Source: Acaryochloris thomasi RCC1774 (GTDB taxonomy: Bacteria; Cyanobacteriota; Cyanobacteriia; Thermosynechococcales; Thermosynechococcaceae). Taken from it: a stretch of 32,000 nt of DNA. Positions 20,776 through 22,355 of the stretch are shown here, in pieces. The stretch covers positions 180,001 to 212,000 of the forward strand of contig NZ_PQWO01000005.1 of the NCBI RefSeq assembly GCF_003231495.1. The letters are read 5' to 3'. Made by a program: the position numbers and the translations under genes. A model generated the notes under the pieces. That model had not been told where the DNA came from, did not search any database, and worked only from the letters and a program-made list of their open reading frames with translations. The stretch's first letter is position 1, and every line of letters begins with the position of its first letter.

Positions 20776-21669
20776 TTAGTCAAAACACCAGGTTTCTAAG
20801 GTCTCTGTCTTTGTTCCTGTTCCTTGCCTTGCCGACGGGCGATCGGGCATTACGGGGCGGCTGGGCAAAGAACGATATCGGCTTCTGGCAGCGGGTACAG
20901 CGACAAGGGCCGTTTCAGCTTTCTTCGGCTCAGGTGGCTCAGCCTTAGGCGCAGCAGGCTTCGCTTCCTGATTCGCTATCTGCTTCTGGAGGCGCTGATT
21001 TTCCTTGGCTAGCTTGAGGGCATCTTTCTTGGTCTGATCGAGCTCTTTTTTGAGCTTGTCCATCTGCTGGAGTGCTTTAACAGCAGTTTGATGATCAGAT
21101 AAAGCCACCTCTAGTTTTTTTACCTGCCCTCCCAGGTTGACCTCCTGCTGCTTGGCAATGCTGAGTTCTTGTTTCAGATCAGTTAACTGCCGCTCCAGTG
21201 CGGCTGTTGTCACGGTACTGTCTGTCGCTGCAGATGCCGTAGAGGCTTTGCCAGTGGACGTTTTGCGAGCTGTTGTCTTACGATTGGCTTGCGTGCCTGC
21301 GGTGGCTGAACCCCGCTTCTTGGCTGCAGTTGTTTTTGCCGTAGTTGATGATTTCGTGGTGGAGCCGGTCGTTTTCCGGCCTCGGCTTGCTGTAGGCTTA
21401 GCAGCTGTTTTTGCCTTTGTTGTGCGACGGCTACGCGTCGTCGTTCTACTCTTTTTCGCAGTTGTCGAGGCTTTTGCTGCGGTCGATTTTGTGTCTTGGC
21501 CAGCAGTCTTTTTGGCGGTCGATTTTGGGGTGTCCATAGCGCTGTCCTTTGCTGATGCTGAATCTGCGGCGGGTTTCTTTCCTTTCGCTGCAGTGCTGTC
21601 TCCTTCAAAGTCTGGAGATTTTTTCACTTCTTCTCTCAGCAGATCCGCCAAACCTTTTTTAGTCGCCAT
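20776..21669 (-). CDS. Basic intrinsically disordered / coiled-coil protein, McdB-like partner of the upstream ParA-type ATPase
   Basis: I prefer ATG 21669 ([17 protein letters not shown]...) to TTG 21681, because this ATG overlaps the ParA stop as TAATG. About 150 aa are K/T/A/S/R-rich low complexity. A heptad-like Q/K/L-rich segment follows (LERQLTDLKQEL...LQKQIANQE). The C-terminus is ...TETLETWCFD, with Trp fourth from the end. Confidence 0.5.
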   Translation of the reverse strand: MATKKGLADLLREEVKKSPDFEGDSTAAKGKKPAADSASAKDSAMDTPKSTAKKTAGQDTKSTAAKASTTAKKSRTTTRSRRTTKAKTAAKPTASRGRKTTGSTTKSSTTAKTTAAKKRGSATAGTQANRKTTARKTSTGKASTASAATDSTVTTAALERQLTDLKQELSIAKQQEVNLGGQVKKLEVALSDHQTAVKALQQMDKLKKELDQTKKDALKLAKENQRLQKQIANQEAKPAAPKAEPPEPKKAETALVAVPAARSRYRSLPSRPVMPDRPSARQGTGTKTETLETWCFD

Positions 21670-22355
21670 TAACTTTCCCAATCTCGTTTGATTTCATCAA
21701 CAACGCGGTAATAATCCGCCTGTGCTTCTTTACTTTGCTTCCCTTTACACTGGGTGATGGGCTTGCCTTCTAGGGCCGCTCGCTCGTGGGCTTTATAGGC
21801 TCTAACAAAGGCATGGAAGGCTGGAATCCCCAATTCTCTAAGGGTGTTTTGTGCTTCAAGGGCTTCCCGGAGGCTGCGAGGGTCTACTCGCGTTAGTAAG
21901 ACGCGATGGTCAACACCAACGGGTTTAACGCGGGTCCGCACCGTCTCGATCAGAGCCGTGAGGTCCATGGGTGCTGGTGGAGTGGGTAATACAAGATAAT
22001 CGGCCAAAGGGACGACTTCTTTAAGTGTCTCAGAATCTAAGGCAGGGGGCGTATCTACAATGATGAAATCATGCTTGCGATCGCGACGCAATGCTTTCAT
22101 CGACGTTGGATCGGTTTCAGTTTGAACGTCAAACTTTGGCGCATCGTCAGGGGAACGTTGCGTCCACCAAGCCGCCGAACCCTGCGGATCGCTATCGACT
22201 AGTAGAACCTTATGATCCTCAGCCAGAACGGCTGCCAGGTTGACAGCGGTTGTGGTTTTCCCAACGCCACCCTTACCATTGAGGATGACTAAAAGCTTTT
22301 TCGTGGAAGCAGTAGGCACTGCGATTTCCTCCAGCGCAATTTCTGCGCCCAGCAC
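21669..22355 (-). CDS. ParA/MinD-family P-loop ATPase (McdA-like, type with signature lysine)
   Basis: It has the deviant Walker [12 protein letters not shown], an A' box [11 protein letters not shown] and a Walker B FIIVDTPP. The start is GTG 22355 or alternatively GTG 22319. No ParB-type partner is present in the window. Confidence 0.85.

Follow-up and report, generated by a model that had tools for sequence, protein, structure and literature searches.

The window analysed here is a stretch of 32,000 nucleotides from Acaryochloris thomasi RCC1774, carried on a 353-kb chromosomal contig, and all coordinates below are window positions. Three genes follow one another on its minus strand. The first, mcdA (22355..21669), encodes a ParA-type ATPase of 228 aa from a GTG start; the second, mcdB (21669..20776), encodes an adaptor protein of 297 aa that belongs to no Pfam family; and the third, glgC (20762..19470), encodes a glucose-1-phosphate adenylyltransferase of 430 aa (NF002772, E 2.4e-215, above the cut-off), identical in sequence to PZD73460.1. 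The TAA stop of mcdA (21671-21669) overlaps the ATG of mcdB (21669-21667) in the sequence TAATG (21671-21667), while the stop of mcdB and the ATG of glgC are separated by 13 nt (TTAGGGTTAACTC, 20763..20775). A first-pass annotation, made from the letters of the sequence, had described both junctions and had likened the pair next to glgC to McdAB. This is borne out and can be sharpened, as the two proteins have all the published sequence features of Type 2 McdAB (PMC7182216), and very probably they constitute the Type 2 McdA/McdB carboxysome-positioning system of A. thomasi RCC1774. The pair cannot be dismissed as chance open reading frames (ORFs), since more than 2000 homologues of the ATPase are found at E <= 1e-20 and 54 neighbouring partner proteins share both the N-terminal motif of McdB and a Trp within the last four residues.

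The ATPase is 100% identical to A. thomasi PZD73570.1 / WP_199464348.1 and is publicly labelled 'Soj' (GenBank) or 'ParA family protein'; besides the 228-aa form read from GTG, a 216-aa form exists in the NCBI annotation. It matches Pfam CbiA and AAA_31, with NCBIfam ParA_partition below its cut-off, and the closest relatives of solved structure are small ParA/ParF proteins. Type 2 McdA proteins have been defined by a signature Lys in the Walker A motif (KGGxxK[ST]), two extra Thr, a double Trp by Walker A' and a length of 202-253 aa, the double Trp being specific to this type (PMC7182216). In the window, the classical deviant Walker A motif GKGGVGKT picked out at first pass lies at 22277-22254 on the minus strand, has the signature Lys, and is invariant across the aligned McdA orthologues. 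Two extra Thr follow the Walker A Thr (KTTT, within GKTTTAVN), and the double Trp (W63 and W64, 22164..22169, minus strand) stands just past Walker A'. The Type 2 pattern of double Trp, short insertion and F/E/P positions is present, with W63, W64 and F75 invariant in the orthologue alignment and the conserved E and P positions near Walker A' judged by eye only. Orthologues in Lyngbya, A. marina, Leptodesmis, Kovacikia and Snowella are 64-77% identical to the window protein in an alignment that is gap-free past the N-terminus, and at 216-228 aa the protein has the Type 2 length, with none of the mid-protein extension seen in Type 1.

The definition of a Type 2 McdB is similarly explicit: the ORF after mcdA; an N-terminus with positive and then negative residues; a polar, low-complexity and disordered sequence; a central coiled coil that includes a Gln-rich stretch; a Trp among the final four residues; and a length of 132-394 aa (PMC7182216). 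The protein encoded by the window has each of these properties, its gene being the ORF that immediately follows mcdA across the TAATG overlap. An AlphaFold2 model built from a 30-sequence family alignment, in which the predicted local distance difference test score (pLDDT) served as a proxy for disorder, has a helix at residues 7-15, a low-confidence region at 16-147 (block-mean pLDDT 41-58), a long helix at 148-236 with a core pLDDT of ~98, and a low-confidence tail; outside the two helices pLDDT is below 60. Residues 1-17 (21619..21669, minus strand) make up the N-terminal helix, in which basic residues precede acidic ones throughout the family and which is the family's most conserved block. 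They are followed by a disordered polycationic arm rich in Thr, Ser, Ala and Lys, delimited by pLDDT and composition (residues 18-147, 21229..21618, minus strand). Over the whole protein A, T, K and S account for 54% of residues, in keeping with a polar, low-complexity and, by the pLDDT proxy, largely disordered chain.

Residues 148-236 (20962..21228, minus strand) form a single long helix that is 15% Gln, contains the family motif KKDALKLAKEN and is predicted to be the central coiled coil on the basis of the model, its heptads and its conserved columns. Local windows of 28 residues within it have 62-75% LIVM at the a and d positions. The remainder (residues 237-297, 20779..20961, minus strand) is a Pro/Ala-rich tail recognised by its conserved columns, with an (R/H)P(V/I)xP motif and a terminal ETWCFD. 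Within the terminus ...TETLETWCFD, Trp294 (20790-20788) stands at position -4, and the last ten residues include two Glu and one Asp. The charged N-terminus, the Gln/Lys/Leu-rich heptad segment, the Pro/Ala-rich tail with its Trp four residues from the end, and a lack of any helix-turn-helix (HTH) or ParB-like motif had all been remarked on in the first-pass annotation, and each of these stands. No Pfam or NCBIfam family matched McdB above its cut-off and no HTH, ParB or ribbon-helix-helix (RHH) match was found, which sets the protein apart from the partners in ParABS and ParFG systems; a profile of the family searched against PDB sequences matched coiled-coil proteins only. Matches to Pfam 'Nuf2_DHR10-like' and to NCBIfam 'SH3_and_anchor' and SMC were below cut-off and were rejected as coiled-coil noise.

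Relatives of McdB had to be sought with an exhaustive profile search, because its low-complexity sequence defeats word seeding and a word-indexed search accordingly returned a single relative. The exhaustive search yielded 35, all with the architecture of the window protein. Their common blocks are the N-terminal M-A-x-K-K-R-L-S-D-L-L-R-E-E-V-x-K and, in the coiled coil, ELEQAKKDALKLAQEN; they end in TWCYD, GWVD or TWLLD, and the (R/H)P(V/I)xP motif is also common among them. One relative, P0001, is 58% identical to the window protein by BLASTP and 62% by alignment. A terminal Trp is present in 54 of 72 partners adjoining McdA homologues; the first-pass proposal had been staked on the conservation of this residue and of the coiled coil among orthologues. 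A profile search of genome contigs with an 11-sequence McdB alignment returned six loci, A. thomasi not among them. The tail motif deserves separate mention: R-x-x-x-(R/H)-P-(V/I)-x-P precedes the C-terminal Trp by ~20-30 residues (window residues ~264-277, RYRSLPSRPVMPDR) and recurs in other McdB subfamilies as SILERPIMP and LAHPVFP, while the McdB literature consulted mentions only the Trp and the acidic residues.

The partner had initially been thought roughly twice as long as characterised McdB proteins, and this does not hold. Its 297 aa fall inside the published 132-394 aa for beta-McdB, so its length is not unusual, and McdBs that adjoin carboxysome genes span 150-326 aa (PMC7182216). 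Among the 54 Trp-terminated partners collected here the median length is 214 aa and the extremes are 103 and 326 aa. At 326 aa, the orthologue in A. marina coincides with the published maximum for carboxysome-linked McdB, which suggests that this clade was included in that survey. Neither the 297-aa nor a 301-aa form of the window McdB was found as an exact sequence in a collection of 15 billion proteins in which the flanking McdA and GlgC are present, and an exact-sequence look-up of the A. marina McdB also gave no match; public annotation may have missed mcdB or called it from another start. In Lyngbya the orthologue carries the label 'hypothetical protein'. Recognition of the pair as McdAB thus corrects the labels 'Soj' and 'ParA family' for the ATPase and 'hypothetical' for the Lyngbya McdB, and adds a window McdB that is missing from the protein collection.

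The neighbourhoods of orthologous pairs point to the carboxysome as cargo. In Lyngbya confervoides the pair (McdA 77% identical) is directly followed by two bacterial microcompartment (BMC)-domain genes resembling ccmK3/K4, and five metagenome loci likewise have a BMC gene pair directly after mcdB (six loci in all: L008, L044, L056, L060, L066 and L081). The order mcdAB then ccmK3/K4 is the arrangement highlighted in earlier work (PMC7182216). In a close relative, an 18-kb contig (L092; McdA 95% identical; McdB 300 aa, ending ...TLETWCFD) carries a ccmM-ccmL-ccmK-ccmK operon and, divergent from it, ndhF-ndhD-chpXY-dnaJ-mcdA-mcdB-glgC, with the ccm operon ~6 kb upstream of the pair; in both this contig and a second one (L093), ndhF-ndhD-chpXY-dnaJ stand directly upstream of mcdA. 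The window has the same NDH-1 CO2-uptake module on its minus strand (ndhF, 31510-29672; ndhD, 29665-28106; chpXY, 27332-26184), and a J-domain (DnaJ) protein of 202 aa (25451..26059, minus strand) occupies the interval between chpXY and mcdA as it does in L092 and L093. The final 490 nt of the window (31511..32000) align with the divergent ccmK-ndhF intergenic region of L092, and the window ends ~53 nt before the expected start of ccmK. From the gene order of L092 and this matching end, the same supercluster is present in RCC1774, where a Uma2 gene and ~3 kb of plus-strand genes interrupt it. The association with carboxysome components is thus seen through orthologues, the window itself including the ccmK-ndhF intergenic region only. 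The first-pass annotation had put NDH-1 CO2-uptake genes about 5 kb from the pair; their proximity is meaningful in light of L092. The distance from chpXY to the start of mcdA is 3.8 kb.

The C-terminus of McdB agrees with this cargo, as an invariant C-terminal Trp is required for McdB to associate with carboxysomes (PMC11321042). The first-pass annotation had left the choice between carboxysomes and storage granules; the ccmK-linked orthologues and the Trp motif support carboxysomes as the better candidate, and granules are disfavoured. By analogy with characterised systems, the nucleoid would be coated by ATP-bound McdA dimers, and McdB would sit on the carboxysome shell through its C-terminal Trp end, the tail being the putative carboxysome-binding end, and would self-associate through the central coiled coil. 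The N-terminal peptide of McdB from Halothiobacillus neapolitanus binds McdA (PMC12139897), and we infer that residues 1-17 of the A. thomasi protein are the corresponding McdA-binding, ATPase-stimulating peptide. Contact of this basic helix with McdA would trigger ATP hydrolysis and release, and the resulting local depletion of McdA would let carboxysomes climb McdA gradients to an even spacing, as in a Brownian ratchet. In this lineage the pair stands at the tail of a carbon-concentrating string made up of the ccm operon and, divergent from it, ndhF-ndhD-chpXY-dnaJ, the insert in RCC1774, and mcdA-mcdB-glgC.

The direct junction of mcdB with glgC is one of two features that set this locus apart from other mcdAB loci. 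It is found in seven related contigs, the window among them, with McdB proteins only 58-76% identical to that of the window and a spacer of 6-20 nt: 13 nt in L001, L002, L004 and the window, 6 nt in L003, and 20 nt in L092 and L093. The consecutive accessions MEO0373943 and MEO0373945 suggest that a further metagenome-assembled genome has the same mcdB-glgC order. The survey of this linkage proposed at first pass found it conserved in A. thomasi-like genomes. None of the 80 metagenome loci surveyed has it, nor do A. marina, Acaryochloris CRU_2_0, Lyngbya, Leptodesmis, Kovacikia or Snowella. Among the 43 loci with enough downstream sequence, mcdB is followed by glgC in three (all A. thomasi-like), by a BMC pair in six and by a ROK-family gene in three.

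Several features of the DNA are consistent with a single transcription unit. The 13-nt spacer is too short for a promoter or terminator, and a consensus scan found no minus-strand terminator-like site from mcdA to the end of glgC and one after it, a hairpin with a T-run at 19414..19433, 37 nt past the glgC stop. Upstream of mcdA, a block of ~90 nt (22356..22445, minus strand) is conserved in an alignment of three genomes (the window, L092 and L003); with its -10-like box (TATAGT) and, 4 nt ahead of the GTG, a ribosome-binding site (AGGAGA), it is the probable promoter and leader of mcdA-mcdB, and perhaps of glgC. The stop/start overlap permits translational coupling, and abutting or overlapping mcdA-mcdB layouts are also found in L006, L008, L009, L092 and L093. 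It is most likely, judging from this gene arrangement, that mcdA, mcdB and glgC form one transcript in which mcdB is translationally coupled to mcdA.

A functional reason for such an operon can be proposed from recent work on CipG, a Trp-dependent peripheral carboxysome protein that recruits GlgC to carboxysomes and controls glycogen deposition (PMC13506006), which makes the linkage of mcdAB with glgC biologically plausible. The CipG-GlgC system offers a rationale for a carboxysome gene sharing an operon with glgC; it differs in that the cipG gene lies near ccmP and encodes a pentapeptide-repeat protein, while the link between McdB and GlgC here is a genomic one. No cipG candidate was seen in the window, in which not every ORF was scanned against Pfam, and no interaction between McdB and GlgC has been reported in the literature. 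The mcdA-mcdB-glgC string lends independent genomic support to the physical connection that has been reported for GlgC with the carboxysome surface, and offers a natural system in which to probe it.

The second peculiarity of the locus is the arm of McdB. Residues 18-147 comprise 22 Lys and 9 Arg against 6 Asp and 1 Glu (a charge of ~+24), with 58% Thr/Ser/Ala and an isoelectric point of 11.4. The first-pass annotation had described a basic tract of about 150 aa resembling histone H1; the tract is real and an outlier within the family, but it spans ~130 aa, is Thr/Ser/Ala/Lys-rich and, at 24% Lys plus Arg, is only loosely H1-like. Net charge over the whole protein is +32 in the window and +27 to +50 in the Acaryochloris / A. 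thomasi group, to the whole of which the tract is common, with Acaryochloris CRU_2_0 as an exception at +13; partners outside this group range from -21 to +15. The first disordered region is ~130 aa long here vs 19-83 aa in most relatives. A tandem-repeat search found no tandem DNA repeats in mcdB, so the tract is not a recent repeat expansion. In Synechococcus elongatus, positive net charge in the disordered region of McdB stabilises condensates and tunes solubility (PMC10554743), and the simplest reading of the arm is accordingly that it tunes self-association. By this analogy it is most likely a lineage-specific elaboration acting on McdB self-association or condensate behaviour; direct contact between the arm and DNA is possible. 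The spread of McdB charge from -21 to +50 across the family, with Acaryochloris at the cationic extreme, amounts to a natural experiment on condensation or nucleoid contact.

These two peculiarities can be joined in a single proposal for the A. thomasi lineage, in which an mcdA-mcdB-glgC operon ends the ccm/NDH-1 supercluster, McdB, or its layer on the shell, helps to place GlgC at the carboxysome surface besides or instead of CipG, and the +24 arm touches nucleoid DNA. Taken as a whole this is speculative and we consider it unlikely. If true, it would describe a variant Mcd mechanism with direct contact between adaptor and positioning matrix.

The pair itself was to be expected, as most beta-cyanobacteria carry Type 2 McdAB. 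In common with those systems (PMC7182216), it has all the McdA and McdB hallmarks, a neighbourhood of carboxysome and carbon-concentrating mechanism (CCM) genes in close relatives, and ccmK3/K4-like genes by way of its orthologues. It differs from them in the glgC that stands directly next to it, probably in one operon, in the longer and strongly cationic arm, and in the lack of ccmK3/K4 genes beside the pair in this window. What is known here is thus the Type 2 McdAB system, and what appears to be particular to the lineage is the mcdAB-glgC string within a CCM supercluster and the extreme cationic arm. The Type 1 system of S. elongatus PCC 7942 (Synpcc7942_1833/1834) likewise pairs a ParA-type ATPase with a disordered coiled-coil adaptor ending in a C-terminal Trp motif, and works as a Brownian ratchet on the nucleoid. 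Its McdA, however, has no signature Lys (SGGQGKT), has F/Y in place of the double Trp and carries a long internal extension, none of which applies to the window protein, and in its McdB the coiled coil is C-terminal and acidic residues precede basic ones at the N-terminus, whereas here the coiled coil is central and the basic residues come first (PMC7182216). With the alpha-McdAB of H. neapolitanus the pair shares an N-terminal basic McdB helix, which engages McdA there with K7 critical, and a C-terminal Trp motif, which there binds carboxysomes (PMC11321042, PMC12139897). Unlike the protein described here, alpha-McdB is 51-169 aa long, fully disordered and monomeric, ends in R(V/I)WPD and serves the alpha-carboxysome.

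Several observations weigh against the assignment or narrow what can be built on it. Over the whole McdB helix a single-register heptad test is weak, 240 of 5000 shuffles reaching the observed value, and the evidence for the coiled coil consists of the AlphaFold2 helix and the heptads. The ccm operon of RCC1774 lies more than 9.6 kb from mcdA, past the edge of the window, and ~3 kb of unrelated plus-strand genes part dnaJ from mcdA; L003, whose McdA is 93% identical, has no chpXY within 4.4 kb upstream. The mcdB-glgC order, confined to the A. thomasi lineage (3 of 43 loci), could be a neutral rearrangement. Moreover, Type 2 systems as a class are supported mainly by genomics together with limited heterologous and in vitro tests (PMC7182216).

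The most serious competing account accepts the pair as McdAB and regards the adjacency of glgC as an accident of rearrangement with no functional meaning, glgC being read from its own promoter inside mcdB. Its probability falls somewhat short of an even chance. In favour of this account, the linkage occurs in a single narrow clade and is lacking in A. marina, Acaryochloris CRU_2_0 and Lyngbya, the operon structure of cyanobacteria is generally poor (PMC7182216), and RCC1774 shows local rearrangement in the genes inserted at 22855-25320 and the Uma2 gene at 27422-28054. Set against this, the spacer holds at 6-20 nt even where McdB identity is down to 58%; a promoter scan, itself weak evidence, found no minus-strand promoter-like site inside mcdB; and a link between GlgC and the carboxysome surface has been published (PMC13506006). 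The same adjacency could be turned towards a different cargo, such as glycogen granules or another storage body recognised by the C-terminus of the partner, given that glgC is the very next gene, behind a 6-20 nt spacer, in all A. thomasi-like contigs, that in Leptodesmis, Kovacikia and L014 the gene after mcdB is a glucose-kinase-like member of the ROK family, and that ParA-type ATPases are known to position diverse cargos. We consider this very unlikely: six loci have ccmK3/K4-like BMC genes immediately behind the orthologous pair, L092 has the pair beside its ccm operon, published work assigns carboxysome binding to the C-terminal Trp motif, and the glgC linkage is absent in 40 of the 43 surveyed loci.

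Finally, a DNA-partition module would also explain a small ParA-type ATPase beside a basic partner, with the polycationic tract of an atypical centromere- or nucleoid-binding protein contacting DNA to segregate the chromosome or a replicon. The small ParA/ParF proteins and their ParG or ParB partners do share with this pair the ATPase fold, the deviant Walker A motif and an ATPase-activating N-terminal basic peptide in the partner; ParA_partition, below its cut-off, is the best NCBIfam match of the ATPase, its nearest solved relatives and its GenBank label 'Soj' point the same way, and the partner carries a charge of ~+24 over 130 residues. ParG and ParB, however, bind centromeres through RHH or HTH domains, and domain searches, the AlphaFold2 model and the PDB profile gave no HTH, RHH or ParB domain in the A. 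thomasi partner. The locus sits on a 353-kb chromosomal contig amid CCM genes, and McdB of H. neapolitanus alone binds no DNA (PMC12139897). Nor can DNA binding by the basic tract be the core function of the family, since most members (net charge -21 to +15) do not have it. A partition function is hardly credible on this evidence, and the Type 2 McdAB assignment is retained.

Some further observations concern the surroundings of the pair. Between dnaJ and mcdA, the plus-strand genes at 22855-25320 encode a 223-aa ORF product without a family, an S-adenosylmethionine-dependent methyltransferase and a GNAT acetyltransferase; L092 and L093 are without all three and have a dnaJ-mcdA gap of 282 nt, and the genes look like a lineage-specific insertion in RCC1774. 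The Uma2 gene (27422-28054, plus strand) lies in the opposite orientation between ndhD and chpXY and splits a module that is contiguous in L092; a second Uma2-family (putative restriction endonuclease-like) gene is found at 6319-6918 on the minus strand. The J-domain protein is conserved at 202-213 aa in A. thomasi-like genomes (window 25451-26059; L092:7557-8198; L093:808-1449), with the DnaJ match limited to its first ~60 residues. At the far end of the window, RCC1774 and L092 share a nearly identical block of ~145 nt (~31854-32000) within a ccmK-ndhF spacer that otherwise diverges, which makes this block a candidate regulatory region shared by the ccm and ndhF-ndhD-chpXY operons.

CO2-uptake and CCM-type genes also adjoin mcdA in other arrangements. 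In L078 (623-6025), an McdA homologue (64% identical) without an McdB-like partner lies directly upstream of ndhF-ndhD-chpXY on the same strand, an orphan mcdA joined to an NDH-1 CO2-uptake operon. A divergent LysR regulator stands upstream of mcdA in A. marina MBIC11017 (L007:3616-4530, minus strand) and Acaryochloris CRU_2_0 (L006:4195-5109, minus strand); its best match is CbbR (214 and 206 bits, respectively, below the cut-off of 450), and it may be a CCM regulator of the RbcR/CmpR/NdhR type.

Other genes of glucose metabolism lie near mcdAB in relatives. The ROK-family gene directly after mcdB in Leptodesmis sichuanensis (L009:6580-7272), Kovacikia minuta (L010:6570-7277) and the metagenome contig L014 (~816 nt past mcdA) best matches polyphosphate--glucose phosphotransferase (143 bits, below the cut-off of 250), and is the second glucose-metabolism gene, besides glgC, found downstream of mcdAB. 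In L001 (2655-5005), an A. thomasi-like contig, downstream of glgC come a HEAT-repeat gene and, in convergent orientation, a gene for phosphoglucomutase, which makes glucose-1-phosphate, the substrate of GlgC.

Directly downstream of glgC, the minus strand of the window encodes a DevB/DevC/DevA-type ATP-binding cassette exporter (HlyD-like, 17300-18496; DevC, 16128-17303; DevA, 15396-16106), with a divergent TetR regulator at 18740-19375 on the plus strand, and this exporter/TetR arrangement is kept in L092 and L093. Two unrelated minus-strand genes of the window encode proteins of uncommon composition: one of 638 aa (10053-11969) with Schlafen AlbA_2 and HATPase_c_4 domains, and one of 396 aa (1645-2835) that combines DUF4062 with an MCP signalling domain.

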